Under the pieces are notes generated by a model that searched no databases, was not told the origin of the DNA, and saw only the letters and a program-made list of their open reading frames with translations. Made by a program: the position numbers and the translations under genes. From assembly GCA_965242965.1 (NCBI GenBank), contig CBDETU010000001.1:1-38183 (forward strand): 38,183 nucleotides of DNA. Reading direction: 5' to 3'. Below, in pieces: positions 1-38,183 of the stretch; positions within the stretch are counted from its first letter, which is position 1, and each line of letters starts with the position of its first letter. The stretch is from Candidatus Poribacteria bacterium. Its GTDB lineage: Bacteria; Poribacteria; WGA-4E; WGA-3G.

Positions 1-969
1 GCGTGCTGCTTCGGTAGGCGAGTGTAGGTTGGGCAATCGTGGGAATGAGTTTAAGCGGGGTGCCGGTCTGGGTGTATTGGCAGGGTTGGCTACGATTTCA
101 ACGCTGCAGTCTCGCAGTAGTTCTGGGGTGAGCGTTGGCAGGATGTCACAGAGGATTGGGATAATCTCTTTGAAAAGCACGCCTGTCTGGAGGTAGTGTT
201 TGACGTCGCGGTGCAGTTCGGGTGCGCGGTGGATAACTTCGCTGAGTAGATTTCGGATGTTCCAGGCGCGTTGCAAGAGATGGGGCAGGAGCGGGAAACA
301 GCATCGTGCGCGTGGTGCGAAATGATAGTGAGCGGCATCGACGTAGTGACACATCGTCTTGATAGGCCAATCGAGAATGATAGAGAGTGCGCGGAAGAAG
401 GGTGGCGAGGGGTAGGTAGAGCGTCTCCATCTGCCGATATTCTTTCCGTAGCAATTTCCGACGATGGTTTCGAGTTCGCGTCGGAGTCGTGATTCGGCGA
501 TACCGCAAGTTTGCATGCGTTCGGTGAGTGCTTTTCCGAAGGCTGTCTGTGCGGTATAGAGTCGGTAGGGCTGGTAGGAAATGTCGGCGTGTTCGCGTTC
601 TGCGGCTTGCAGGCGTGTCACGATTTCGTCATCGGTCCAACTTGTTCGGCTGTTCAGGACTTCTCGGAGTCGCCGTGCGAGGGCGGCATGTCCGATTGCG
701 TAAAGTCCTGCAACGTCCAAGTCTGCTTTTCGGTAGTTGCAGGGTTCGCAGACGAGCTGTAAGTTGCTTAAATGTTCGCTGCCGCCGCGGGCGCGGGGCA
801 CAATGTGGTCTACTGCTAAAAACGCTTCTGTTGTGCCGCAGAGATTACAGCGCGGTCCTTCCAGGGCGAGCAGGTATTTTTTATCGACGGCTAAATCGCG
901 TCTGGATGCGGTTCTTTTGTGTGTAGACTTGCGCGCGGGCAAGCTCTTTTCATAGTGAAAGGTTCTCAT
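1..969 (-). CDS. HNH endonuclease fused to XRE-like HTH domains, 5' part (runs off position 1)
   Basis: Manually translated minus frame with no stop from ATG 969 to position 1; absent from the ORF track. Contains CNLCG..LAVDHIVPRARGGSEHLSNLQLVCEPCNYRK (Zn-binding HNH), then FGKALTERMQTCGIAESRLRRELE..NIGRWRRSTYPSPPFFRALSIILDW (XRE-like). Confidence 0.85.
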   Translation of the reverse strand, partial: MRTFHYEKSLPARKSTHKRTASRRDLAVDKKYLLALEGPRCNLCGTTEAFLAVDHIVPRARGGSEHLSNLQLVCEPCNYRKADLDVAGLYAIGHAALARRLREVLNSRTSWTDDEIVTRLQAAEREHADISYQPYRLYTAQTAFGKALTERMQTCGIAESRLRRELETIVGNCYGKNIGRWRRSTYPSPPFFRALSIILDWPIKTMCHYVDAAHYHFAPRARCCFPLLPHLLQRAWNIRNLLSEVIHRAPELHRDVKHYLQTGVLFKEIIPILCDILPTLTPELLRDCSVEIVANPANTPRPAPRLNSFPRLPNLHSPTEAAR

Positions 970-1124
970 GAGCGTGATGGTGGTGCGCGCGCGAGTCAAC
1001 ACGCGCGCGCACCGGCTTAAGTCTCTCATATCCGTGAAAAATTGTCAAGACGCGTTTTGGCGCGTTTTGGCATATTTTCAGTCGAGTGGGTGTGCAAGAT
1101 TGCACACCCATCTGCGGCGCGGGC

Positions 1125-1513: not shown

Positions 1514-1597
1514 TGTCTTAAAACGTTCGCATCGCGCATGCCGAAGACCGCTGTCTATCAGGGCTTCGTTTTTGCGAAACTTTCGATTATTAAGACA
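1514..1597. repeat. TGTCTTAA...TTAAGACA-bounded element, copy 1 (84 bp, divergent interior)
   Basis: 8-bp terminal inverted repeats; 1501-1521 matches the reverse complement of 3138-3158 at 20/21 nt. Confidence 0.7.
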
Positions 1598-1646: not shown

Positions 1647-1976
1647 TTAATCGCCGAACCGTTGGCGGATGCGTGCGAGCATCTCTTGCCAGGTTGGCAC
1701 GTTGCGGGTGGTTGTCGGTTCGCTTGGCAGTCGGAGCGATGGGTAGATATTCTCACCGCACCGCGGGCAGCGTGTTCTGCCGTGCGTATGTAGGAAGGAC
1801 GGGCTTTCACATGAAAATTCCGTCTGGCAGTCGTGGCACCAGCAGACTTCATTAGCGAGTGCGGATTGCACGCCGAACCGCCGTTTGAGTTCGAGGGCGA
1901 TTGCGTATTTATCGCTGTCAATCGCGTTTTCGGCGAGTCCTTCCAGTTGTGCGCGTGTCATGTCGCGAAGTTTCAT
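1647..1976 (-). CDS. zinc-ribbon protein
   Basis: CHDC...CPRCG cysteine pairs; AGGAG RBS. Confidence 0.7.
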   Translation of the reverse strand: MKLRDMTRAQLEGLAENAIDSDKYAIALELKRRFGVQSALANEVCWCHDCQTEFSCESPSFLHTHGRTRCPRCGENIYPSLRLPSEPTTTRNVPTWQEMLARIRQRFGD

Positions 1977-3044: not shown

Positions 3045-3145
3045 TGTCTTAAATGCCGTCAGGCTCGGCTGAACGCCGGCATGTTTCCAAAACGCCGAGT
3101 CTAAGCGTATCTCGGTAAAAGGCAGGCGATTTTTTTATTAAGACA
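3045..3145. repeat. TGTCTTAA...TTAAGACA-bounded element, copy 2 (101 bp)
   Basis: Reverse complement aligns along its length with 26844-26942, including the core CGCTTAGACTCGGCGTTT and ATGCCGGCGT. Confidence 0.85.
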
Positions 3146-3759: not shown

Positions 3760-5331
3760 TTATCGTTCGGCTCGGAGTGCGGCTTCTTGCCCGGCCAAGA
3801 CTTCCTCGTCTAATGGCGGCATGCCTTGCGGAACGCCGGGTGTGAGGAGATCATCGACTTGCAAGCCGAATCCCCTGTCCAGCCCGAGGAACTCGATAAA
3901 GCGTTCGGGCGAGAGTTGATAGCCGCTGGCTTGTAAGAATTGCACTACCTGAAGTCTGCCGGCGAGTGTATTCGGAATGGAGGTAGAATCTGGCATCACC
4001 AGCTGGTATCCAATTTTCCGTGCGTCTTCCGGGAAACTTTCAGGCAGATCTAGCCCGCCGCGCCAGAAATGCGGTGCGAGGGGCCGGTCTGCAAATTGTT
4101 GAATGAGTGTGAGTTTGATTCTTGCGCGAATCAAGCGGCTCTCATTCATAGAGGTGACGTTATCCGAAACCTGATTAATCGCTGCTTGTTGCAGTGTGTT
4201 TGCGAGTCGTCCGCTGGCGTTACTTGAAGGAGATTCCCCGATAAATACGGGTGAGAGCGAGGGCATCATACCATCCATCACTTCGGCCAGCATTTGGACG
4301 AATTGAAACAGCGCGACGGGGATGTCTTCCGGGGGCAGGTGCTGGATATCGCTCATCTCTTTTCCCTCTTCGAGTTCGATGACGATACCGTGTTCTGCGA
4401 GGATGCGTTCCCTATCGAGTGTGCCGTAGGTTGTCAAAAACCGTCCGACGGAGGTGTTTCGATTAATGAGGATGAGATTCGCGAGGAGCTCATCGTAGAG
4501 TTTTTGTTGCGGCCACATGAACGTCCCATATCCATAGCCCCAAAAATCGTGAGCCTTCCCGTCGCCGAGGAGATTCAGAAAATTCCGCCAAAGCACGAAG
4601 GGATAGGAGGGCCACCAGTAGGGGCTTTCTTGGACGCGGCTAATCTCATCGTTTACCAACGTTGCGAGCACGAGCGGCGTGCGGCACTTTTTGATGTTGA
4701 TACCGCAGTCGTCGGCTTGTTCTTTATCGAGCCACATTTCATCGACGCAGTAGCTAGCGCGTTCCCAATCCGAATCTCGGTGAGTCGGCAATTTATAGCG
4801 TCGTTTGATGTCGCGCCCGAGGTGCCAATTTCGGTGAACGACATAACTTGCATCCGAGAAGTCAGCGTTTGCACATTTTGGGTCTGGTGCAAAAGTCAGT
4901 GGATCGATGGCTTCGCCAGTCACTACCTGTCGTTTGAAATCGTAACGGACTTTGCTAATGGCGTTGCCGCAGACGAGATTATGCGTGACGAGGGTGCGGA
5001 GCCTGTCGCCCTCGTGGTCTACTTCGTCCATCATGTCCATCCAGTTCTGAAGATCTTGGACGAGCATGATATCTTCATCGAGGGAGGCGCGCTTATCGGG
5101 TTTCACTTCGATGCGCGGCATTTGTTCGAGGAAGGCGGGCAGCAAGCGATGAATGCCCTTTTTGATTTTCGGATCGAGGGAGGCGGCGACAAGCGGTCTG
5201 AGGTTACCGATGCGAATATTGCCGCTGGCATACACCTCATTTGCGTAGATGGCGAGTTCGCGTCGCATGCGATTATGCGCTTCTTCGCTTGCCGAGAATG
5301 CGTCGTCGCGTAGTTCTGTAAGTTTCGACAT
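3760..5331 (-). CDS. portal protein (P22-like)
   Basis: About 523 aa from MSKLTEL; motifs LVCGNAISKVRYD, IDPLTFAPDP..DASYVVHR, YPFV, GYGYGTFMWPQQ, ASGRLANTLQQAA; downstream of terL. Confidence 0.85.
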   Translation of the reverse strand: MSKLTELRDDAFSASEEAHNRMRRELAIYANEVYASGNIRIGNLRPLVAASLDPKIKKGIHRLLPAFLEQMPRIEVKPDKRASLDEDIMLVQDLQNWMDMMDEVDHEGDRLRTLVTHNLVCGNAISKVRYDFKRQVVTGEAIDPLTFAPDPKCANADFSDASYVVHRNWHLGRDIKRRYKLPTHRDSDWERASYCVDEMWLDKEQADDCGINIKKCRTPLVLATLVNDEISRVQESPYWWPSYPFVLWRNFLNLLGDGKAHDFWGYGYGTFMWPQQKLYDELLANLILINRNTSVGRFLTTYGTLDRERILAEHGIVIELEEGKEMSDIQHLPPEDIPVALFQFVQMLAEVMDGMMPSLSPVFIGESPSSNASGRLANTLQQAAINQVSDNVTSMNESRLIRARIKLTLIQQFADRPLAPHFWRGGLDLPESFPEDARKIGYQLVMPDSTSIPNTLAGRLQVVQFLQASGYQLSPERFIEFLGLDRGFGLQVDDLLTPGVPQGMPPLDEEVLAGQEAALRAER

Positions 5332-5341
5332 CGTGACGTTC

Positions 5342-5668
5342 CTATCGGCGTTCGCGTATCCGTCGGCGTTCTTCAACGAAGTCCGGTCCGAATGGGCAGG
5401 GCGGCAGCCGTTCGCCAATTACTGAAATCTCGGACAGGAATTCGTAGACGACCTGCTTATCCAAGTCTTGTTCGTGCGGATAGAGTTTCGCGTAAGGCAG
5501 TTCGCATAAGCGTTCGAGTCCACGAACATATACTTCGGGAAACCAGAGGCCGCTGTGACCGGGTTGGCGTTTCCCGTTTGATAGATGGTGTTTCATGTAG
5601 GCGACCCAGCGTTCGTGTTCGGCGTTTGCGAGCTGTTCTAGGAGTGCCTCTTTCTCTTTCTCGTTCAT
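5342..5668 (-). CDS. RyR-repeat-like small protein
   Basis: LANAEHERW...LPYAKLYPHEQDLD matches the RyR-domain pattern LA..EHERW...L.PY..L...E...D. Confidence 0.65.
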   Translation of the reverse strand: MNEKEKEALLEQLANAEHERWVAYMKHHLSNGKRQPGHSGLWFPEVYVRGLERLCELPYAKLYPHEQDLDKQVVYEFLSEISVIGERLPPCPFGPDFVEERRRIRERR

Positions 5669-6827: not shown

Positions 6828-8573
6828 TTAAACTTCCACCTTAAATTCTTCGGCTCGTTGTCGTCGGCGTTGTTGTGTTTCGCGCCGAACGACTTCCAGT
6901 TGATTGACTCGTAGTTGACACGCACCTTCGAGTGCATCCGGTCCGTCGATGAAATCGGCTGTCGGGAATTGTGACAGCTGTTTCATAAATTCGCCGGGTA
7001 GCCCTTCCCGGAAGGCGAGCCAGCCGTTACTAATCGCCGGCTCAAGCGCGGCAATGCGTTCGATTTTGTTGTGGTAACGCGTGAGGAATTCTAGTGGCAC
7101 TGTAGCCTTGCGCTGTTCGCGCAGTGAAGTGAATGTCAGGTTGACATATTCCTTAATGGCCCCGGTCTTGTCAATGAAATCCTCAACGCCAAAGCGAAAG
7201 CGCGGACGTTCGCACCGCACCAGCCCGCTCTGGACATTTTCTAGTATATCAAATGCACTTTTAATTTGCAATGATAATTTGACTCTGTCCAACCATGCAG
7301 AATAGACGTAGCCTTGACAGCCGGCGAGTGACTCTCGGTTGACGGTGCGCCCACCCGGCATGGGCACCCAGACGACACAAACTACGGCGGCGAATGCATT
7401 ATCTACCGAATCCTTCCCGCCTGCCCAATCGAGCAGGAGGGATGCGCCGGCCATCTCTCGCCATTTGATCAGTCTGTTATCGCTTCTTTGAAACCCTTCG
7501 TCTGTCACCTGAAAGGTAATCGCGTTGTCCATGTCGAAAATGGCTTTGCTCGGGTCGCGGGTTTCGTTTTGCAATTCGCGCAACACCGCCCAGTAGCCGA
7601 CATCACAAATCTCCTTGCGGACATCAAGATAGGTTATCATTTCAGGCCAAAGCTCTTTTACGCCCGCGGTCATTTCTTTCTCGTGCTGCTGATAAAAGGC
7701 ATCGGCTCTTGAAACGCGTTCGGTATCGGGACGGGACATGTCTGTCAGGAGCTGTTCCCATTCTTTCCAGAGCGGCTCGGCGGTAGGGTGCCATAAATCA
7801 GCAGGCTCTTCGATCGCCCGGTAGAGTTTCGTCATCCAGCCTGGGCGGCTGCGGAGGAGCGAGGCGGTAGATTCCTCGTGTTTAATGGTGTCGATGTTGA
7901 GGAAATTCGTGCTGCCGTCTAAAGCACCTGCTCGCAGAAAATCGGTGTCGAACCAGTCCTGGTCCTTCTTACGGACATCGGGATTCAGCACCTTTTCTGC
8001 GTCATCTAAATCGTCCGAAATGATGAGACTTGGGCGGTGTTCGCGACTCAGACTGCCGCGAATCTGTCCCCCGCGCCCTTTCGGTTCGAGTTGCACGCCG
8101 TTGGCGGTGACGAGCGACTTGACACCCCAGTGCTTTTTTCCCGTCAGATCGCCGAAGTAGGCGCGGAGTTTCTCATTGCTTTCCAGTTCGGCTTGGATAC
8201 TCTTGACGCGCGATTCTGCCATCTGATACGATTTCGAGACGATGATGATAAAGCGTTCCGGGGTGTAACCCATCGCCTCATCGTAGTCAACATAACAGAT
8301 ACGATGCAACGGTAACATCACGGCCATCAGCGTTGATTTCGCGGAACCGCGCGGGGCGAGGATGTTGACTTTGCTGCCGCGGGTACCGTGGGGTAGGGCG
8401 TGGAACAGCTCGTAATGGTGGCGCGCGAACTCGATGGGCACATAGTGCGGCAAAAAGAATTTCGTAAACAGCGGGAGGTTCCAGTAGGCTTTTGCTTTAA
8501 TCAACTGTTTCGCTTTCGCCGGGTTCGACTTGCTGAGCGTCAGGTAAGTCTGATACGTCGCCGATATCGTCAT
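6828..8573 (-). CDS. terL: terminase large subunit
   Basis: Walker A APRGSAKST, Walker B LIISDDLDD, C-terminal nuclease motif DFIDGPDALEG. Start uncertain (8573 or 8639). Confidence 0.93.
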   Translation of the reverse strand: MTISATYQTYLTLSKSNPAKAKQLIKAKAYWNLPLFTKFFLPHYVPIEFARHHYELFHALPHGTRGSKVNILAPRGSAKSTLMAVMLPLHRICYVDYDEAMGYTPERFIIIVSKSYQMAESRVKSIQAELESNEKLRAYFGDLTGKKHWGVKSLVTANGVQLEPKGRGGQIRGSLSREHRPSLIISDDLDDAEKVLNPDVRKKDQDWFDTDFLRAGALDGSTNFLNIDTIKHEESTASLLRSRPGWMTKLYRAIEEPADLWHPTAEPLWKEWEQLLTDMSRPDTERVSRADAFYQQHEKEMTAGVKELWPEMITYLDVRKEICDVGYWAVLRELQNETRDPSKAIFDMDNAITFQVTDEGFQRSDNRLIKWREMAGASLLLDWAGGKDSVDNAFAAVVCVVWVPMPGGRTVNRESLAGCQGYVYSAWLDRVKLSLQIKSAFDILENVQSGLVRCERPRFRFGVEDFIDKTGAIKEYVNLTFTSLREQRKATVPLEFLTRYHNKIERIAALEPAISNGWLAFREGLPGEFMKQLSQFPTADFIDGPDALEGACQLRVNQLEVVRRETQQRRRQRAEEFKVEV

Positions 8574-9051
8574 CGTCTTCACTTTCGTGAGATACGCGGA
8601 TGCGTGTGCCGGGGAGTAGTCCATGGAGTTTGGCTTCATATTCGTCTTCCTGTCGTTCCGTCTGGATGAGCGCAACAAAGTATTTCGACGCGGCCGCGTC
8701 GTCAGGATGCGTCTGAAGGTGACTTTCAACTCTGTCCATTTCATCGCCTAACCTGTCGAGCCGCAGGGCGCGCCGCCGGTCTTGCGTTTCTTTCAATTGT
8801 CCACTTTGCGCTGCACGTCCGCGTTCAAATGCTTCCCGAAAACGCGGTTCGCAGCGTGCATCGTTCGGGTGGCAGTTCCGCAGGCGACCGCGGAGCGTCT
8901 GGCGATTTTCACGTGTATCGGGCACGCCGAGTTCGCGCAGGAGTTTTGTTATCGCGCGCTTGACACCTGTTCTGTCTGTGCCGAACTGGACAAGCCATGC
9001 AACAAACGTGAAACGATGTCCTTCTTGAACGTTGGGAAATGTTCGGTCCAT
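8497..9051 (-). CDS. probable terminase small subunit
   Basis: 184 aa, helical, acidic tail, immediately upstream of and overlapping terL. Confidence 0.6.
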   Translation of the reverse strand: MDRTFPNVQEGHRFTFVAWLVQFGTDRTGVKRAITKLLRELGVPDTRENRQTLRGRLRNCHPNDARCEPRFREAFERGRAAQSGQLKETQDRRRALRLDRLGDEMDRVESHLQTHPDDAAASKYFVALIQTERQEDEYEAKLHGLLPGTRIRVSHESEDDDDIGDVSDLPDAQQVEPGESETVD

Positions 9052-9055
9052 TGCA

Positions 9056-11176
9056 TTACGGCTGTTCCTGTTGTTGCTTCGCGCGTTCGCCGACGCGGGC
9101 GGGGTAACCGAGCGTCCATTTATGCTTGCGCATTAAGTCGGCGGCACGGTTCATGCTCGGTGCATCGATGCGATATGATTTTCCCCGAATCGTGACTTCA
9201 TGGACGAATCCATCAAGCAGCCAATCGCGTCCCGCTGGCGAATTGATAAATTGCTGATATGCCTTGCCGGTGCCCCATGTGGCGGTGATGGCGAGAACAT
9301 TCAAAACGTCGACGAATTGAATGTCCGGAAGTCCACCACTTCGCAGCAAATAAAGTGCCTCATCAAGCAACGGGATACTCAAGCCGCTTGCGATGGCCTT
9401 CGGGAGAACCTGTTGCAATTTGGCGGTTGGCGAGCCTCGCTTCCATGTCTCGGCGCGTCCAAAGCGTTGTGCGAACTCGGCAGATTCTACGAGCATGGCT
9501 GCGGTATCCTCACCGAACAATGTAATGAGGCGGTTCGGATCTTGGCCACGAATCCGCTTCAATACTGATGTCAACCCTGCCGGGAGTGCCTTGCGCGCCG
9601 CCATATCGTAAATCCGCCCAAGTAGTGCCGGTTCGAGAGCCTCCCAACCATCGGGACCGAGAATAGTTTTGAGGTTGCTCAATTCGGCAGTAGTGATTTT
9701 GCTCTTCTCTTTTAAGAGCTCATCGATGATATTCCCCGGTCGCTCTTGTGACTTCCGCAGGAATGTTGCGGCGACACCTTCATCCAGTTGAATCGTATCA
9801 AGATAGTCTTTTTTGGCAAGACGCACGGTATCGATGAAGTTATCAGGGAACGCTTCGGGATTCAGTGAAATCTGTTCCTCTAACAGCTGATAGAAATCCT
9901 CTGTTAGGGCGTGGTAGAGCCGCGATGCCACCGTGCCTGAGCCTATCGCCGTCATCTCTTTATTTGCGATGGCGAGGTTGATACTATCACGATAGCTCGT
10001 GCGGAGCTGGTCAAAATCGCGCAGCGTCAAATCCTGACGTTGCAATTTTTCAAAGACTTCTTCCAACAAGGCGGTGGCTTTGACGACATCGGGTTTCGGG
10101 AGCAGTTTCGAGGTGCTAGCCTGCAATGCTTTCACTTCGGCGCGCGTATGGGGGAGTAGCTCCATATCGGGAATGCGGACTAACGGCTGATCGAGCGTTT
10201 CACCGATCTTTCCAAACCGTTCTCGAAACTCGCCGCGGAGCCCGAGCTGCCAGTCACTATAATTTTCCAAGGCGCGCGTGCCAGCAATCTCCGGTAGTCG
10301 CACATCGCCCAGTTCGGCGACGTTGGCGGCGGCATCTTCTACGGCCTGCGTGCGTTTCTCCAAAATGGCTTGCTTGGAAGTCTCAAACCGCGCCTCTGCA
10401 CCGGCGATGCCTTCAAACCGTTGCCAGCCCTCGATAGCGGCGGCGCGTTCCACATCCGAAAGGACTGCGACGGGCGTTTCGTCCTTGCCTGCGCCGAACT
10501 GCTCGGAGGCTTCTTCAGGACGCATCGTCGTCGTGATGTCCTGTCCCGTAGTCTCGTCACGCCCAATGGGGACTTCCACTTCGGGATTATAGCCGGCTTT
10601 GTGTTTCTCCATCCAGCCTGCTGTCCCTTTGAGTGCACCGCCAAGTGCCTCGCCGGGGAGGTTCGTCGGATCCGCGAGTTCGGCAGCGCGTTTTGTTGTT
10701 TGCAAGATGCGATGATACTTCGCCGTGCGATTGCTCATCTTCAAGGCGGTGGCACTTCCCCCCGACAGCAGCGGCAGCAGATCGGAAAGGATTGCAAACG
10801 GATCTTCGTGTAGTGTCTTTTTGAATCCTGCCTCAGAACCATAGCGTCCTTTGTAGTCTTCCATAACTGCAGCGATGAGGGGATAGTCGCGTAGGTTGAG
10901 GGTATCTTCTCCGTCAGCTTCAGTGAGATCCTTTGTCAATGCACCGATGTCTTTCGCAAGGGCCACGGCGATGCTCGGCAGTTGTGGAATGCCCTTGACA
11001 GTATCCCACAACCCCTTGCCAAATGAGCGGTAAAGGGTGCCGCTTAAGGGACTGATGCCGCTCAACGCCTCTTTCCAGCTGAGTTCTGTTGCTTCTGCTG
11101 GCTCTTCGGTTGACGCTTCGGTTGACGCTGGCGCGGCGGATGGTTTCTTTTCCCAATTATCCTTCAGATTCGGCAT
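9056..11176 (-). CDS. probable internal virion / DNA ejection protein (large)
   Basis: About 706 aa from MPNLKD with GAGG RBS; helical and Ala/Gly/Leu-rich; third gene of a trio following the adaptor, as for P22 gp7/gp20/gp16. Confidence 0.55.
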   Translation of the reverse strand: MPNLKDNWEKKPSAAPASTEASTEEPAEATELSWKEALSGISPLSGTLYRSFGKGLWDTVKGIPQLPSIAVALAKDIGALTKDLTEADGEDTLNLRDYPLIAAVMEDYKGRYGSEAGFKKTLHEDPFAILSDLLPLLSGGSATALKMSNRTAKYHRILQTTKRAAELADPTNLPGEALGGALKGTAGWMEKHKAGYNPEVEVPIGRDETTGQDITTTMRPEEASEQFGAGKDETPVAVLSDVERAAAIEGWQRFEGIAGAEARFETSKQAILEKRTQAVEDAAANVAELGDVRLPEIAGTRALENYSDWQLGLRGEFRERFGKIGETLDQPLVRIPDMELLPHTRAEVKALQASTSKLLPKPDVVKATALLEEVFEKLQRQDLTLRDFDQLRTSYRDSINLAIANKEMTAIGSGTVASRLYHALTEDFYQLLEEQISLNPEAFPDNFIDTVRLAKKDYLDTIQLDEGVAATFLRKSQERPGNIIDELLKEKSKITTAELSNLKTILGPDGWEALEPALLGRIYDMAARKALPAGLTSVLKRIRGQDPNRLITLFGEDTAAMLVESAEFAQRFGRAETWKRGSPTAKLQQVLPKAIASGLSIPLLDEALYLLRSGGLPDIQFVDVLNVLAITATWGTGKAYQQFINSPAGRDWLLDGFVHEVTIRGKSYRIDAPSMNRAADLMRKHKWTLGYPARVGERAKQQQEQP

Positions 11177-12770
11177 CGGTTTCTTCCTCGTCTTCGGTTT
11201 CTTCCGCGTCTTCGGTTTCCTCCTCGTCTTCGGGGTAGACTTCATCAAGAAGAGTCTCGCGTTCCGCGTCCGACAAGGCATCACCAAAGATGTCACGAAG
11301 ATCTTGGCGTTGCGCCTCGCGGGTATCCCCTGTCGACTTGGCTTCTTGCATCATCGCCACTAATGCCGAGCGCGTCGTCGTCTTACCATCGGTGGCGGTG
11401 TATGTCGGTTCTGCCTCGGAGTCTTCGCCGGGCTCTTCGCCGGACTCTTCGCCAGGCTCTTCGGCTGACGCTGATGCTGTATCATCGCCTGTCGCATCGG
11501 GCATTTCGGAACTGAGTAAAATCTTATCCCACCCCTGTGCGTCGAGTACCTGCTCAGCAAGTTCGGGCGAAGATTGTCCGCTGTAATATGCGTGCTGGCT
11601 GCTCCGCAACGATAATAGGTTTCCGTCAATCGAACCTTCGTTGATATCCTCGTCTTTGAAAATCGCGGGGAGCATGCCCTGCACCCGCGCAAATTCTGAT
11701 TCATTGACGGCAGCACCAGAGATCTGCTTCAGAAACTCAACGAGGTGGCGCGTGATACGCGTCTGAACCTCGGTGGCTTTCTTGCGCTGCTCTGGCGTGA
11801 GCTTGTCAAGCCCGGAAACACTGAGCGTCCAACTTTGCAACAGCGAATTAAAGTCTTTTTTGTTCATCGCCTCTACGGCGACAGAGAACAACCGCCCTGT
11901 CTCGACACCGAGCTCTTTCAACTCACGAAGCCCGGTACGGATATCCACCAGTTCCCGCGCCGCGGTGAGACGCAGCCCCGCCAACTTGGAGGTATCTAAG
12001 TCGTTGAACTTATCGCCAAACAGCCGGAATGCGCCCGCTTGATTGTTGGCAGCGTATTCCGTCGCGATGGCTTGATAGAATCGCTCCGCTTCTTTATCCG
12101 TCAGGGCGAGCCGATTGCCGAGCCGCAACGTCACGCTCCGCACGGCGGCATCGGGTATGCTTTCGAGTGCCTGCTGTGCGGTTTGACTATTCGTGAGGGG
12201 CGCGCTACTGGCTCGGCGCGTTGTAAGTGCCTCTAGCGTTTCGAGTTTACGTTCGAGTTTCTGTGTCTCATCGAGGGGTAGCGTATCAATGATGTTCCAC
12301 AATCCTTCTACGGTAGTGGCCAGTTCGGGGTTCGCGGCGCGGAACGCCTCGGTATCCTGGTCTAATTTGGCTTGCGCGGCAGCAAGCATGCGTTCATTTT
12401 GTGCCTTCGCTTCTTCTAACGCAAGTTCCTGCTTGCCTTTCATCTCCTGAAGTGTCGTCTGGCGCGTTGTCTCTTGTTCTTCGCGCTCGGAGGCTTGTGT
12501 GCCTTTTAATTCTTGCAAGCCGCGCTCATGTGCTTGCTCCTGACCGGCGAGTGCCTCTTGTTGGGCGAGCCGTTCTTTATCGAGTTGCAACATGGCGGCA
12601 TCTTTCAATGCGCCGAGTTCGAGCTTGCGGTTTTCGAGCGCAAGCATGGCTTCATGGCGCGCGCGTTCGTCTTTCGCTTGCCGAACGGCGAGCTTCGCAC
12701 CGCTGACACCGCGCAGGGCGGCCATCAAGCCTTTTGCTGCACCCCGTAGGGCATACATTCCGTTTGACAT
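11157..12770 (-). CDS. probable DNA ejection protein, coiled-coil with acidic tail
   Basis: Start MSNGMY with GGAG RBS; Q/E/A coiled coil; ISGAAVNESEFAR motif resembling podophage ejection proteins. Confidence 0.6.
   Translation of the reverse strand: MSNGMYALRGAAKGLMAALRGVSGAKLAVRQAKDERARHEAMLALENRKLELGALKDAAMLQLDKERLAQQEALAGQEQAHERGLQELKGTQASEREEQETTRQTTLQEMKGKQELALEEAKAQNERMLAAAQAKLDQDTEAFRAANPELATTVEGLWNIIDTLPLDETQKLERKLETLEALTTRRASSAPLTNSQTAQQALESIPDAAVRSVTLRLGNRLALTDKEAERFYQAIATEYAANNQAGAFRLFGDKFNDLDTSKLAGLRLTAARELVDIRTGLRELKELGVETGRLFSVAVEAMNKKDFNSLLQSWTLSVSGLDKLTPEQRKKATEVQTRITRHLVEFLKQISGAAVNESEFARVQGMLPAIFKDEDINEGSIDGNLLSLRSSQHAYYSGQSSPELAEQVLDAQGWDKILLSSEMPDATGDDTASASAEEPGEESGEEPGEDSEAEPTYTATDGKTTTRSALVAMMQEAKSTGDTREAQRQDLRDIFGDALSDAERETLLDEVYPEDEEETEDAEETEDEEETDAESEG
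11176..11233. repeat. 18-bp tandem repeat x3 (coding)
   Basis: TCGGTTTCTTCCTCGTCT and two near-identical units encoding EDEEET/EDAEET. Confidence 0.85.
11422..11464. repeat. 12-bp tandem repeat x3.5 (coding)
   Basis: TCTTCGCCGGGC / TCTTCGCCGGAC / TCTTCGCCAGGC encoding EEPGEESGEEPGED. Confidence 0.8.
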
Positions 12771-13473: not shown

Positions 13474-14457
13474 TTAATAGGTCCCGCGGCTGAACACGTG
13501 TTGGGTGGACTCTGGCGCAACATCTACTGAACCACCACGCCGCACCTGCACATGTTGCTGCCACGCAGAAATATTCTGTTTAATCCGACGACGGACATGC
13601 GGTATCGCTGTCCTGTAGGTGCTCTCGTAATCGCGGTTTTGCACCTCCGTCTCGCGGTCTGAAAATCCAAGCTCACTCCCGCGCGCCCAATACAGACACC
13701 GATGCATCAAGCAGGTCTCGAGCTCAACGTCTAATTCCAGCTCATCGTTTTCTCTGTCTAAATCTAACTGCTGGAACTGGCGATGCAGGCGCGAGTAATA
13801 AATCCAGATAGATTCTATCCCCGGCGCATCGGTGCGGTTGGGCGCAGGGGCAAGCATGAGCGTCTTCGCCGCGGACTCCGGTGATAAAATCCGAATCACA
13901 TCGCCTTCTTTAAACTGTGTCCGGGTGCCACCGATGAGCTCGCCATAGCCGATTTCTAGCCACCCCTCCTCGGCATTCCGGGTGACGTTGTTAATTGTCG
14001 TCTGACTCTGCTCATCGGAGAGGTTGAGTATCCTGTCACCGGCTTTCACGGTGGCATAGGCGGTATCGACGCGGCACTCGTTGGAAGAATTGGAGACGAC
14101 GGTATCGACGGCTTTCTCGATGGCGGAGTTCCCCCAAATGTCGAAATTCCACGGTGAATTCGAGGAGACCCAACTTGCAAGTGTCTCAATCCCCGGCAAG
14201 GTCGCGGGGTGCAGTGGATACCACTTGACATCGTTAAAAGCGACCGCATGCATGGTGACGAAGGACTTCGGTAAACCGTACTGATATTGCCCTTCGACGG
14301 CCACGAGGAAGTCTTTGATATCAACAGAACGCGAGCGTGAGGAGATCTCGCGCAACGCCTCATTCACCTGAATGAGCAGGTTGGCTTGCGTATGGTAATC
14401 CCCGTGCGGGTCACCGAGTTTCACTTGGAGTTGGGCGATGAGTTCTCGGCAGTTCAT
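13474..14457 (-). CDS. head-tail adaptor protein
   Basis: Start MNCRELIAQLQVKLGD with GAGGA RBS; L...VNEALREI, EGQYQYGLP..F, L.LAPAP and IYY motifs of podophage adaptors, with a beta-rich insertion. Confidence 0.7.
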   Translation of the reverse strand: MNCRELIAQLQVKLGDPHGDYHTQANLLIQVNEALREISSRSRSVDIKDFLVAVEGQYQYGLPKSFVTMHAVAFNDVKWYPLHPATLPGIETLASWVSSNSPWNFDIWGNSAIEKAVDTVVSNSSNECRVDTAYATVKAGDRILNLSDEQSQTTINNVTRNAEEGWLEIGYGELIGGTRTQFKEGDVIRILSPESAAKTLMLAPAPNRTDAPGIESIWIYYSRLHRQFQQLDLDRENDELELDVELETCLMHRCLYWARGSELGFSDRETEVQNRDYESTYRTAIPHVRRRIKQNISAWQQHVQVRRGGSVDVAPESTQHVFSRGTY

Positions 14458-14459
14458 GT

Positions 14460-15542
14460 CTATTCCTCTATCCAGATATATTTGGGCAAATTCACCGCGG
14501 GGAACACTTCGTCGAGCAGGGCGTAGAGCAACGGATCGCCCTTTATCACCGTCTCTTGGCGCCACCTACCATGCTCGTCGTCTCTGTTAAAATCGTCAAA
14601 CCACTCTCCCGCACCCATCGCCCAGTATTCCCTTTCGTTCTTCATGGCGTGCAAGTTGATGTCGTTATAATATCCTTCGCCTTTGAGTGCTTTCTGATAG
14701 GCAAGCGTATACGCCGTCGTCAAACGCTTCCCAAAATCGGGAAAGAGGTGCGGATTATCGTCAAACGTATAATCTATGGCGTGCGCCATCTCATGCACTA
14801 CTATGCCGCTATCCAGTGATTCTTGGCGCAGCGTTGCATCGAGGTGATAGACAACGCCGCCCGCCGCGAGGTGCCTCGAAACGCCGCCGGTGTTTGAACG
14901 CGTATAAAATCCCGCGAACCGACTGAACGAACTTAGCTCGCCCGGCATGGTTACATCGTCGCCTTCGGCACCCACCAGCACGTAGTAAAATCCGTGTTCG
15001 GGCGACATCGCTTGACGTAGTTCGGGCATCTCCGAGGTCATCATCAAAAGAATCTCGCGCGCCGCATATATGAATTCATCGCGTGCGCCGACAAGGGAGG
15101 TGCGATCGGAGGGGGCAAGGATGGCGATACCACCCGCATCGATGTATTTATCGTAGAACAGCCGGTTCGTCACCTGCAAATCGCAGAACGGCTGGAAGAG
15201 GCCGGCGGCTCGCGGTTCGAGCTGCGTTACCACCAGTTCGCCGGTTTCGGAATCGAGGTGTTGGCCGCTCTTGTGCAGGAGCACGAAATCCTTGATGTGG
15301 TCCATTTTCTGTTCCCAGTTACCCCACAGTGCGTCCTGAATTTCCACCGGCACGGGTGAGATAACCATGTCGCTGCCGGTACCGGCTTTCACCTTGTCGC
15401 TAAGCCAGTAGCCGGCATCGGCATCGGGTGCCGGGTTAGGGACAGGATGGACGATGAGTTCTGTGAGCATGCCGCGTTCGCCGTCAAAACACCCGGCGGT
15501 GAGGACGATGAACGCGAGCAGGTAAAACGTGAATCTTTTCAT
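14460..15542 (-). CDS. lipoprotein zinc metallopeptidase (gluzincin, anthrax lethal factor catalytic-domain-like)
   Basis: Signal peptide with lipobox-like LTAGC; VVHEMAHAID; downstream NEREYWA third-ligand motif; DPLLYALLDEVF terminal helix. Confidence 0.8.
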   Translation of the reverse strand: MKRFTFYLLAFIVLTAGCFDGERGMLTELIVHPVPNPAPDADAGYWLSDKVKAGTGSDMVISPVPVEIQDALWGNWEQKMDHIKDFVLLHKSGQHLDSETGELVVTQLEPRAAGLFQPFCDLQVTNRLFYDKYIDAGGIAILAPSDRTSLVGARDEFIYAAREILLMMTSEMPELRQAMSPEHGFYYVLVGAEGDDVTMPGELSSFSRFAGFYTRSNTGGVSRHLAAGGVVYHLDATLRQESLDSGIVVHEMAHAIDYTFDDNPHLFPDFGKRLTTAYTLAYQKALKGEGYYNDINLHAMKNEREYWAMGAGEWFDDFNRDDEHGRWRQETVIKGDPLLYALLDEVFPAVNLPKYIWIEE

Positions 15543-25652: not shown

Positions 25653-26588
25653 TCAGGCGATTCCGAACTGCGCTCGCGACATCGAGGCGACTATTACGGC
25701 TCTCTCGAAATCCCGATGAATCGCGCCCGGCATTCGGTGCCTGTCGCAATCCCGTATCGGTTTCCACCGCCCTCCTTTCTTCTGGTCGATCTCGTGGGTG
25801 GCGATGTTTATCCGATACTGCTCGTTGAAACTGTATCGCCAGTCGCCTTTCGCTCGCATCTCGCGCCGTTGTTCCGCCGGTCTGCGCTTGACGGCGCGCT
25901 TTTCAGGCGGCTTGGGATAGAGCTGGAACACGGAGATCTCGTGCGATTTTGATAACCGCTCTAGCATCCCCGCCTCACGCAACTCGGTGATGAGCTCACA
26001 CACCGTCTGCTTGCCAAACCGTGTTAACTTGGATAACGTCTCCATCGTGCAAGGATTCGTCATCCCTGTCTTCCAATCGGAAAAGCGTTTCAGCACCACC
26101 CATAACAGGCAGGCTTTCCAGCTAATCTCGCCGGCGAACATCCGCTCGAACGGGCCGCCGTTCCCGCGCGGCACCGCAAACTTCAGCGGTAAGCCGTCCT
26201 TATCGCGCGGGATATCTGCTTCATCGCACCGATGGTGTGTCAACTCGTAAATGGTGCCTTTCTGTCCGACGTTGACTATCCGCACGAGGGTGTCTTTCAA
26301 TCGAGTGACAGACTGCCGCAGGTATCGCGTAGAGATACCGAGCAGTTCGGCGAACTTCCGGCGCGATGTCCAATGCGTCCGCCCGTTCTGCCAATTGCTC
26401 CGGTAGTTCAGTGTCAATGCGATAACCGCATCGACGGGCTTCAATTCGTGTTCCATCGTCAAGAGTGTCAACGCGCTACCCATGCCGAACGGCACCTGCA
26501 TCGTTGTCTCTTGATACTCAATATGCGGCTTATATGCCACCGATCCAACGGGGCGACCGCGCCGATTCTTCCGCTTTCGACGGTTCAT
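25653..26588 (-). CDS. putative replication initiator with two tandem winged-HTH domains
   Basis: Internal duplication: LTLNYRSNWQNGRTHWTSRRKFAELLGISTRYLRQSVTRL vs VVLKRFSDWKTGMTNPCTMETLSKLTRFGKQTVCELITELREAGML; AAGGGAG RBS before MNRRK; adjacent iteron-like repeats. Confidence 0.7.
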   Translation of the reverse strand: MNRRKRKNRRGRPVGSVAYKPHIEYQETTMQVPFGMGSALTLLTMEHELKPVDAVIALTLNYRSNWQNGRTHWTSRRKFAELLGISTRYLRQSVTRLKDTLVRIVNVGQKGTIYELTHHRCDEADIPRDKDGLPLKFAVPRGNGGPFERMFAGEISWKACLLWVVLKRFSDWKTGMTNPCTMETLSKLTRFGKQTVCELITELREAGMLERLSKSHEISVFQLYPKPPEKRAVKRRPAEQRREMRAKGDWRYSFNEQYRINIATHEIDQKKGGRWKPIRDCDRHRMPGAIHRDFERAVIVASMSRAQFGIA

Positions 26589-26660
26589 TCTAATCTCTCC
26601 CTTCACCGCGAAACTCAATGACCGCGAGGGGTTTTCAGGGCTTCGCAATGAATTTTTAAT

Positions 26661-26843: not shown

Positions 26844-26942
26844 TGTCTTAATAAAAATATGTCGTCATTTTCGCAAGATCCGCTTAGACTCGGCGTTTGT
26901 CGATATGCCGGCGTATCGGCTGATGTGACGGAGTTTAAGACA
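26844..26942. repeat. TGTCTTAA...TTAAGACA-bounded element, copy 3 (99 bp)
   Basis: Inverted homolog of 3045-3145; preceded by the shared flank CCGCGGCA. Confidence 0.85.
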
Positions 26943-36694: not shown

Positions 36695-36999
36695 TACTTC
36701 CTCCGTTCCTGCCACCATCGCCAGCCGAAATGCACGCCACAGGCATAGCCGAACGTGAGATATTTCATGGCGATGAAATTGGCGATGTCGACGTAGGGCT
36801 TGTCCTTCACGTTCAGATACTCGGATACCTCGTAGGTGAGGAATGCGAGCGTTATCGCCAGTGCGAACAGCGCGGGCGGCACAGACTTGTGAAACACGCC
36901 CCGCGCGAACAGTATCCCGGCGGCGATGCCCTGCGCCCAGTGCATAATCGTGGCGAACGGGTATTCCGAGAAGGTTAAATAGCCCAAAAGACTAGACAT
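36694..36999 (-). CDS. holin candidate
   Basis: 101 aa with two to three hydrophobic segments and basic C-terminus QERRK; overlaps the lysozyme stop. Confidence 0.5.
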   Translation of the reverse strand: MSSLLGYLTFSEYPFATIMHWAQGIAAGILFARGVFHKSVPPALFALAITLAFLTYEVSEYLNVKDKPYVDIANFIAMKYLTFGYACGVHFGWRWWQERRK

Positions 37000-37429
37000 C
37001 GAAAGGCTCTCCCGAATCGGTGATGAGGGCCCGCGCCAGCCGATGGTATCTCTCGCCGGTCTGGCGGGCGGCGCGGCTATCGAGGATTTCGTCGGCGGCG
37101 GTAGACATATCCCCGGCTTTCAACGCGGCGATCGCTTTGTGGAACTTTTTGAAAGTCCCGACACCGAGATTGAAAATGAGATTGACGATGACTTCGCGCT
37201 GCACATCGGTGAACGCCTCGAATCCGTCATCGCCGAAGACTTGGCGTGCATCCCCGATGGCCCTATCAATATCATTCGAGAGCAGCAGGTCTGCCTCCTG
37301 ATCCGAGATGCCGACGGCTTCTAGATTTCTACCTACGCCGATGGTGGTGATGCCCTGCGTATCCTTGTAGGGTGTGAGCCTGACACCTTCATCGCGGCGC
37401 AGCGTTTTGATGAGTCTGTCCCTATCCAT
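36992..37429 (-). CDS. endolysin, GH24 (T4-type) lysozyme
   Basis: DEGVRLTPYKDTQGITTIGVGRNL with E-x8-D-x5-T triad; NLIFNLG; GGAGG RBS before MDRDRL. Confidence 0.95.
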   Translation of the reverse strand: MDRDRLIKTLRRDEGVRLTPYKDTQGITTIGVGRNLEAVGISDQEADLLLSNDIDRAIGDARQVFGDDGFEAFTDVQREVIVNLIFNLGVGTFKKFHKAIAALKAGDMSTAADEILDSRAARQTGERYHRLARALITDSGEPFDV

Positions 37430-37450
37430 GCTTTTCCTCCCGTGTTGTTT

Positions 37451-37479
37451 AAGATAGCACCTTTCGTGATTTTTGTCAA
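37451..37479 (-). promoter_or_regulatory. sigma70-type promoter, proximal to lysis/tail operon
   Basis: Minus strand TTGACA-17 bp-TATCTT with extended -10 TG. Confidence 0.7.
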
Positions 37480-37558
37480 AGATGGCGTTCTGGGTGGCGA
37501 TGCCATCCAGAACGCTGGAGAATGAAAATGTCAAGTTCTCGGTTCTATTGACACGGTT

Positions 37559-37587
37559 ATCTTACACGTGTTTGCAAAAAATGTCAA
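37559..37587 (-). promoter_or_regulatory. sigma70-type promoter, distal to lysis/tail operon
   Basis: Minus strand TTGACA-17 bp-TAAGAT. Confidence 0.7.
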
Positions 37588-37592
37588 GTGTT

Positions 37593-37634
37593 AAAAAAAA
37601 CGCAAGCACGGGCGCGGGGAGCTCGTGCTTGTGT
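37593..37634 (-). terminator. intrinsic terminator after the HNH-HTH gene
   Basis: Stem CAAGCACG/CGTGCTTG with imperfect extension, followed by a T-tract on the minus strand. Confidence 0.7.
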
Positions 37635-37655: not shown

Positions 37656-38183
37656 TTATCCGAGAATTCGCAAGACCTGGTCCAATTCGATTTTCCATCG
37701 GGTTTGATGGCCGTTCATGACGGAGCGTTGTGCGGCTGTCAGCGTAGGCGTTCTCCAGCCGAGGAATTCGCGGATAGCGGGAAACCGGAAGGTCGGGATG
37801 TGTCGTCGGGTTAGCCATTGTCTGGCGGTATCATGATTTTTGAGGTTGCACTGTCGTCCTAATGCGCCGTAGGACTGTCCGTTTTGGCTCAGGGCATATT
37901 TCACCAAGGTCTGCTGCCATGTTTTTGTTTCGTCGCTGATGGTCTGCAGGTGTGGCTTCCAGCAGTCGGGCATGATAGGCGTAGGGACTTCGTAAATATC
38001 CAGGTCCAGGAGAAAGCAGTGGAGTGCCCATGCTTCCAGTGTTATCGGCTTAGTCGATTTCGATGAGAGCATTTTCCAGAAATATGCCAAAGATACTTTT
38101 TTTGTGAGGCAGGCTTGCATCGCGGCCGCGGTCCAGCCTGCGTCCCATCTTTTGATGCTGAGCCAGAGATAAAAGGCTTTCAG
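37656..38183 (-). CDS. 3' part of the HNH-multi-HTH gene (open at the right edge)
   Basis: Frame is open from 38183 (LKAFYLWLSIKRWDAGWTAAAM...); XRE-like YALSQNGQSYGALGRQCNLKNHDTARQWLTRRHIP; in frame with 1-969 if the ends are joined. Confidence 0.8.
   Translation of the reverse strand: MKAFYLWLSIKRWDAGWTAAAMQACLTKKVSLAYFWKMLSSKSTKPITLEAWALHCFLLDLDIYEVPTPIMPDCWKPHLQTISDETKTWQQTLVKYALSQNGQSYGALGRQCNLKNHDTARQWLTRRHIPTFRFPAIREFLGWRTPTLTAAQRSVMNGHQTRWKIELDQVLRILG

Follow-up and report, generated by a model that had tools for sequence, protein, structure and literature searches.

We examined a 38,183-base stretch of DNA from a Candidatus Poribacteria bacterium (contig CBDETU010000001.1), called the window from here on, which is an entire contig (C2) of a two-contig, 5.70-Mb assembly. 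The window looks like a circular phage replicon that was cut open within one of its genes. This gene, the subject of our analysis, encodes a predicted HNH nuclease followed by an array of helix-turn-helix (HTH) modules. On balance, we lean toward reading its product as an HNH endonuclease that owes its sequence specificity to a tandem HTH array reading a long DNA site, most likely in a homing-type or competitor-directed role. The gene is represented by two open reading frames (ORFs), one at each end of the window:

1..1029, minus strand: N-terminal 343 codons of the gene (ORF call; runs off the window start)
37656..38183, minus strand: C-terminal 175 codons and TAA, in frame across the circular junction (ORF call, relatives' alignment)

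The first ORF begins with an ATG at 1029-1027 and reaches base 1 without a stop, and the second is open at its 5' side and ends with the TAA at 37656-37658. Because 1029 and 528 are both multiples of 3, the frame is continuous when the window ends are joined. No terminal direct repeat was found in the window. This absence, the two ORF lengths divisible by three and the fact that the window is a whole, separate contig are what make it look like a circular replicon opened within the HNH gene.

Relatives of the protein were found by two kinds of search. A word-index search with the N-terminal translation (N-part) gave four close relatives, P0001-P0004, with 51-59% identity. HMMER with the non-HNH part against 1.84 billion representatives gave seven proteins, of which P0003 and P0004 were already known and P0007-P0011 were new. 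The family consists of 10 other proteins (11 in all), and every relative comes from ENA/Logan metagenome assemblies. Residues 8-269 of P0004 (476 aa) aligned with residues 46-306 of the N-part at 53% identity (E 4e-99), and its residues 299-450 aligned with residues 1-146 of the C-terminal translation (C-part) at 31% identity (E 2e-18). P0007 (477 aa), P0008 (504 aa) and the fragment P0010 aligned with both parts in the same way. The columns of the C-part that are invariant in these four proteins include F4, V66, P67, W75, G142 and W143 (C-part numbering), and across the junction the conserved linker 'LP' is separated from the first helix of module 3 by 10 residues, compared to 6-12 in the four relatives. 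Since four metagenomic relatives have both parts joined in a single chain, the comparison indicates that 1029..1 and 38183..37656 are a single gene of 518 aa. The earlier note on this DNA had joined the two halves into one protein, and the colinear relatives and their matching spacing bear this out; the halves do not belong to separate proteins.

An assembly artefact would give a different picture, in which the contig ends lie apart in the real molecule and the stretches 1-1029 and 37656-38183 come from two different genes. The adjacency at the junction is supported by sequence comparison, which leaves some room for this explanation. We consider it very improbable given the continuous frame, the same order and similar spacing of both parts in the four relatives, and the standing of the contig as a separate replicon of a two-contig assembly.

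The joined protein has 518 residues, a mass of 59.6 kDa and an isoelectric point of 9.7. Its possible starts are ATG 1029 (the longest ORF), GTG 1002, TTG 999 and ATG 969 (Met21, the start that the earlier note had used), none of which has a clear Shine-Dalgarno sequence. The N-termini of the relatives lie near residues 30-46 of the window protein.

The nuclease domain was assigned near the N-terminus:

724..849, minus strand: HNH (His-Me finger) nuclease domain, residues 61-102, with CxxC, DH, N and CxxCN (Pfam)

The motif residues are C61xxC64, D74-H75-I-V-P, N89 and C94xxC97-N98, and they form the intact-looking HNH motif that had been noticed before. In HNH domains the two CxxC pairs bind zinc, the D-H pair is catalytic, the N is structural and a final N or H follows. 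Pfam HNH (PF01844) and HNH_5 (PF14279) both matched residues 61-102 at 40.1 bits, above their cut-offs of 21.4 (E 4e-10) and 27.5 (E 3.5e-10), respectively. C61, C64, D74, H75, N89, C94, C97 and K101 are shared by all nine family members with this region, whose overall identity is 25-56%, and N98 is replaced by Q in P0001. In PHROG, 36 families matched at E up to 0.1; among the 25 listed, 23 carry the name HNH endonuclease, one that of endonuclease VII, and one has no known function. By motif and profile, the N-terminal domain is a member of the HNH superfamily. Pfam gave only HNH, HNH_5 and HNH_4, with no match to HNH_3 or NUMOD at E up to 1.

The rest of the protein was studied with AlphaFold models, for which the N-part was modelled with a 10-sequence alignment and the C-part with 5 sequences. 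Residues 160-310 of the N-part had a predicted local distance difference test score (pLDDT) of about 72-96. The C-part model had a mean pLDDT of 81.5 and a predicted template modelling score (pTM) of 0.78. The following features were predicted, in the order of the protein chain:

556..717, minus strand: helical linker, residues 105-158 (helices 106-111, 115-128, 133-146), conserved in the family (model, pLDDT 41-64)
334..552, minus strand: predicted HTH module 1, residues 160-232, recognition-helix motif NIGRWRR..YP, net charge +5 (model plus fold and profile matches)
100..312, minus strand: helical module 2, residues 240-310, packed on module 1, a putative HTH (model, pLDDT about 88-96)
1..99, minus strand: proline-rich linker, residues 311-343, low-confidence prediction (model, family alignment)
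37965..38183, minus strand: predicted HTH module 3, C-part residues 1-73, whole-protein 344-416 (model plus fold matches)
37746..37952, minus strand: predicted HTH module 4, C-part residues 78-146, whole-protein 421-489, motif ARQWLTRRHIP, net charge +7 (model plus fold matches)
37662..37736, minus strand: long C-terminal helix, C-part residues 150-174 (model)

In the models, modules 1, 3 and 4 show the five-helix lambda-repressor-like fold and gave fold-level matches to XRE-type HTH domains. The five helices of module 1 lie at 163-175, 179-190, 194-203, 209-218 and 223-229. At the aligned position, its distant homologue P0011 matched Pfam HTH_3 (PF01381; 27.5 bits, cut-off 23) and HTH_26 (24.4, cut-off 22). 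The module-1 alignment was also compared by hhalign with a control HTH_3 profile, for which 31 unrelated loci from the host phylum were used; it aligned over 61 columns at E 4.3e-4 and 34% probability, and reversed or column-shuffled controls reached a probability of 2.3% at most. The helices of module 3 (2-14, 19-25, 32-39 and 49-59, C-part numbering) and module 4 (76-100, 105-111, 116-125 and 131-141) were compared with 48,161 PDB chains in an unbiased search. The best 50 rows were nearly all XRE-type HTH proteins, as judged by their titles, and these aligned to C-part residues 1-77 or 76-146. For the array as a whole, the closest folds were repressors such as P22 c2, TP901-1 CI, SinR and the controller C proteins of restriction-modification systems. 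Foldseek gave nothing at E <=0.001 for the model of either half, and the fold assignment relies on VIA alignments together with the uniformity of the matched family. A PDB sequence search with the non-HNH profile and the C-part gave nothing below E 1.5.

Module 2 is a confident five-helix bundle in the model, with helices at 242-253, 258-268, 270-282, 287-296 and 302-307. Two weak leads point to an HTH identity. A 139-aa viral tandem XRE-like protein aligned over 142 columns, and the nearest ESM clusters were HTH_3, HTH_26 and HTH_31, with scores of 0.78-0.80, which is the noise range. We therefore treat modules 1, 3 and 4 as HTH folds according to the models and module 2 as a putative one. 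The earlier note had counted about three XRE-like HTH domains. This count was right in substance; four modules are predicted in total, three with fold support and one, module 2, putative. Pfam HTH families found none at E up to 1 in either half of the protein.

The model confidence runs without a break through modules 1 and 2, and the pTM is high for modules 3 and 4 with the terminal helix. These values point to a pair of compact double-HTH units (1+2, and 3+4 plus the terminal helix) that are joined by the proline-rich, low-confidence linker. Modules 1 and 4 are the basic ones. The pattern W..R..P is typical of XRE recognition helices, and both modules carry it (NIGRWRRSTYP and ARQWLTRRHIP).

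The number of modules varies in the family. Relatives of 297-304 aa reach no further than the linker that follows module 2: P0002 (304 aa) and P0003 (297 aa) end inside this proline-rich linker, and P0001 (304 aa) falls a little short of it. Three HTH-like stretches are present in P0011 (368 aa) and four in the relatives of 476-504 aa. Other collections did not add to the family. With megablast, neither window end gave relatives in the phage collection, and tblastn of the non-HNH part against phages gave nothing. An IMG/VR scan with the full alignment returned 30 loci that were HNH-only matches, and IMG/VR scans with the C-part, the non-HNH alignment, the degenerate pattern RW[RK]R..YP.P.FF and the neighbouring 690-aa protein returned nothing. 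The family was not found in GTDB genome contigs or in 175 other genomes of the host phylum, and no relatives were found in JGI metagenomes. A JGI pattern scan gave 18 loci, of which 17 had no tblastn match and one (L050) had a single 25-residue match at E 0.002 that was taken as chance. Word-index protein searches gave no longer relatives with the C-part and no stand-alone C-part with the alignment. Also, no described HNH-XRE or HNH-HTH_3 fusion family was found in literature listings and abstracts.

The mechanism that we propose follows from this layout by analogy. The small N-terminal His-Me-finger domain would be the cutting part, with little specificity alone, and the conserved helical linker would tether it to the recognition part. 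The latter would consist of the two double-HTH units with a flexible proline-rich linker between them. The XRE/lambda-cI-like modules would read a long and probably asymmetric DNA site, with each double unit perhaps serving as the single-chain counterpart of a repressor dimer, and the array would position the HNH domain to nick or cut nearby. The nuclease would cut related genomes without the gene, and the phage's own DNA would be spared, we propose, because it lacks the target site. We infer DNA cleavage, the length of the site, the use of the modules and the biological role alike.

Published systems give this proposal its shape. Phage homing endonucleases are described as nucleases tethered to extended multi-module binding regions that include HTH and contact up to 30 bp (PMC3943268), and their genes as having the nuclease at one end and the DNA-binding domains at the other (PMC10448857). 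His-Me finger enzymes are described as having little specificity of their own and gaining it from added DNA-binding domains, HTH among them (PMC5714182). The window protein has the layout of free-standing phage homing endonucleases, and a homing-type or competitor-directed role is therefore the most likely one in our reading. In its support, no methyltransferase family, and thus no methyltransferase partner, was recognised among the scanned ORFs (33 in one Pfam scan and 22 in another, six of which were common to both). The earlier note had offered a long-site nuclease or a nuclease-repressor hybrid. One protein with a conserved HNH site and a repressor-type HTH array is the layout of a long-site nuclease, and the hybrid is kept as a rival below.

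Several observations weigh against a homing-type endonuclease with a long site. Homing cannot be inferred from sequence alone according to PMC10448857, and this caution applies here. In the AlphaFold model, the HNH region has a pLDDT under 50 and the beta-beta-alpha-metal fold was not confirmed. The matches of modules 3 and 4 had Z values of 4.6-5.6, a range where a common helical arrangement can suffice. Module 2 gave no hhalign signal against the HTH_3 profile and has no sequence support as an HTH. The hhalign comparisons among the four modules found no significant similarity (probabilities of 8% or less), and since the modules have no detectable mutual similarity, an origin by internal repeats is not claimable from sequence. 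The recognition helix of module 1 is almost invariant and the whole family is colinear; this high conservation fits a selfish element that evolves fast no better than it fits a conserved function in the phage. The GC content of the HNH gene, both overall and at third codon positions, equals that of the rest of the phage, with no sign of recent acquisition.

The genes around the HNH gene bear on its possible roles. Nearly all sizeable ORFs of the window are on the minus strand, and the following were considered:

1490-1125, minus strand: 121-aa ORF directly upstream of the HNH gene (sub-threshold HTH_23 match, residues 22-42, E 0.013)
3760-5418, minus strand: P22-type portal (recognised gene)
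6828-8744, minus strand: large terminase (phrog_38, E 8e-59), distantly similar (28% identity) to Mu-like Pseudomonas phages
13474-14565, minus strand: SU10-type adaptor (recognised gene)
25653-26648, minus strand: Rep-like ORF of 331 aa (Pfam HTH_36, E 4.7e-7)
36992-37534, minus strand: phage lysozyme (endolysin), probable ATG near 37428 after GGGAGG (Pfam Phage_lysozyme, E 1.4e-13)

The 121-aa ORF has a proline-rich acidic tail and may encode a small regulator or DNA-binding partner that is co-transcribed with the nuclease. Another small ORF of 109 aa (1647-1976, minus strand) has a CxxC...CxxC pattern like that of a zinc ribbon and matched HypA weakly (E 0.006). When the window was scanned with Rfam and for tRNAs, nothing was found.

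Both ends of the HNH gene have candidate regulatory elements:

37593..37631, minus strand: terminator-like hairpin after the stop, CAAGCACG / CGTGCTTG, with an 8-bp stem, 13-nt loop, CG and T8 (read by eye)
37587-37559, minus strand: sigma-70-like promoter TTGACA-17-TAAGAT (consensus scan)
37479-37451, minus strand: sigma-70-like promoter TTGACA-17-TATCTT with TG (consensus scan)
1043..1070, minus strand: tandem 2 x CCAAAACGCG (1070-1051) abutting TTGACA (1048-1043), 13 nt before ATG 1029 (sequence)

The consensus terminator scan did not list the hairpin, since its loop is longer than 8. Both promoters precede the endolysin/lysis and tail genes. With the hairpin and its T8, followed by promoters, on its 3' side, the HNH gene is the last of its transcription unit and lies at a module boundary. 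Two statements of the earlier note agree with these results: the gene does sit directly upstream of the lysis/tail promoters, and no classical CI is visible, as Pfam recognised no other Cro/CI-type HTH among the scanned ORFs of the phage. The only other HTH matches were HTH_36 and the sub-threshold HTH_23.

This setting raises the question of a nuclease-repressor hybrid or regulator. In that case, the array would bind phage operators, either at the downstream promoters or at its own CCAAAACGCG repeats. The protein would control lysis/tail expression or maintenance of a plasmid state, and its HNH domain would exclude superinfecting DNA. No XRE-like protein other than the HNH protein was found in the phage, the gene of the latter lies directly upstream of two promoters and its closest folds are phage and restriction-modification repressors, all of which would suit a regulator. 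We nevertheless find operator binding by the array unlikely, and the regulatory and exclusion role built on it is just as unlikely. The gene is co-oriented with all others and closes its transcription unit, whereas immunity repressors are transcribed divergently, and no operator repeats matching the array were found near it. The CCAAAACGCG tandem is a possible promoter or operator of the HNH gene itself; the motif is not enriched, with 8 matches at up to 1 mismatch compared to 5.1 expected. A temperate lifestyle is only an assumption here. The conserved zinc-binding and catalytic residues would not be needed by a mere regulator and are left unexplained by a purely regulatory role.

Another repeated element, TGTCTTAA, occurs 6 times in the window compared to 0.43 expected. 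The copies are arranged as inverted pairs with a spacing of 76-93 nt, one pair in each of three intergenic gaps:

1514-1521 (plus strand) and 1590-1597 (minus strand): TGTCTTAA pair
3045-3052 (plus strand) and 3138-3145 (minus strand): TGTCTTAA pair
26844-26851 (plus strand) and 26935-26942 (minus strand): TGTCTTAA pair

In all three gaps, the coding strand shows a GC hairpin (GGGCGAGGG..CCCTCGCCC) followed by TGTCTTAA(T), about 80 nt and TTAAGACAT. The gaps precede the 121-aa/HNH unit, a 188-aa unit and the Rep-like gene. The first TGTCTTAA copy resembles an extended -10 element (TGnCTTAAT), and each pair could represent two promoters that face each other or two paired operators. They look like promoter-associated elements, lie in gaps other than 37440-37600 and gave no indication of a link to the HNH protein.

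A packaging role is another possible explanation. The HNH domain would act with the terminase at pac or cos as HK97 gp74 does, and the array would replace or assist the small terminase subunit. Phage HNH genes beside cos and terminase genes are described as widespread (PMC3592412, PMC10448857). The phage has no recognised small terminase subunit, and phrog_4581, which is annotated as a terminase small subunit, matched the HNH part at E 1.6e-4. This match is confined to the HNH motif. About 5.8 kb and seven ORFs separate the HNH gene from that of the large terminase, and this distance counts against a gp74-type packaging role. Also, the terminase bears a distant likeness to those of Mu-like phages, which package by headful and are not known to need an HNH protein. 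At 518 aa, the window protein is several times larger than gp74-type proteins. Taken together, we regard a packaging accessory as quite improbable.

At the site where a small terminase subunit would be expected, the phage has a 746-aa ORF of unknown family (9056-11296, minus strand). Within it, at 11171-11233, are three 18-nt-spaced copies of a 27-nt repeat that would give a short peptide repeat.

The architecture that supports a homing-type endonuclease would equally suit a host-directed or defence-type nuclease. Such an enzyme would cut host or rival mobile DNA in takeover, plasmid addiction or superinfection exclusion, without homing. PADLOC gave weak HNH-motif-level matches to the defence nucleases PtuB (E 3.6e-5) and DpdF, and NCBIfam gave a motif-level match to IscB/Cas9-type HNH (E 2e-14) that was far under the family cut-off. 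All of these matches are confined to the HNH motif. No defence-system partner genes were found among the scanned ORFs, and the neighbours include no antitoxin-like or methylase gene. We therefore hold this role to be improbable, and a sequence-specific endonuclease of the homing or competitor-directed type is still the reading that we prefer.

If the preferred reading is true, dimer-type repressor HTH domains, which normally act on short palindromes, would have been fused into a four-module chain that aims a nuclease. This would add a DNA-recognition solution to those known in phage homing endonucleases (NUMOD, zinc finger, AP2 and single HTH), and the gene would be a candidate for a selfish or competition function, carried by a virus of an uncultured bacterium. 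The 11-protein family with two to four modules would make the relation between module number and site length measurable. If the protein is a regulator, it would be an unusual repressor that retains an active-looking nuclease. A bolder view, which we hold to be rather improbable, is that the protein is the founding example of a new homing-endonuclease architecture. In this architecture, an HNH domain would be steered by a single-chain double-HTH XRE array and the number of units, one in the relatives of about 300 aa and two here, would set the site length. In its boldest form, the protein would also be the only immunity repressor of a phage-plasmid, silencing the adjacent lysis/tail promoters and destroying incoming relatives.

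Three groups of known systems were compared with the window protein. The HNH proteins of the HK97 gp74 packaging type and the zinc-ribbon HNH nicking enzymes share with it a phage HNH domain with two CxxC zinc sites (PMC3592412). The proteins of this group are small, lack HTH arrays and are encoded beside terminase genes, in contrast to the long protein and distant terminase gene found here; this group was rejected for lack of terminase adjacency. An HNH enzyme of a restriction-modification system was also rejected because no cognate methyltransferase was found among the scanned ORFs. The XRE/Cro-CI repressors (P22 c2, 434 repressor, SinR, TP901-1 CI, C proteins and CapH) have one HTH per chain and act as dimers on palindromic operators, whereas the window protein has four predicted copies per chain that are fused to a nuclease and missed by the Pfam HTH models.

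The closest likeness is to the free-standing and intron-borne phage homing endonucleases I-HmuI, I-TevI, I-Bth0305I, T4 MobA-E and Seg. These have an N-terminal nuclease, a linker and a string of DNA-binding modules that include HTH, and they are phage-encoded without a methylase partner. This layout is also described in PMC2790892. A nuclease and separate DNA-binding modules in one chain characterise these enzymes, and the window protein has both as far as sequence and models tell. I-HmuI is of the HNH_3 type with NUMOD, whereas the window protein has Pfam HNH and HNH_5, and membership in the I-HmuI group was ruled out since neither HNH_3 nor NUMOD was found. Homing endonucleases use NUMOD, zinc-finger, AP2 or single HTH modules, and here four domains of the lambda-repressor/XRE type are predicted in two packed pairs. 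By analogy, the layout is that of a modular homing endonuclease with a different kind of module.

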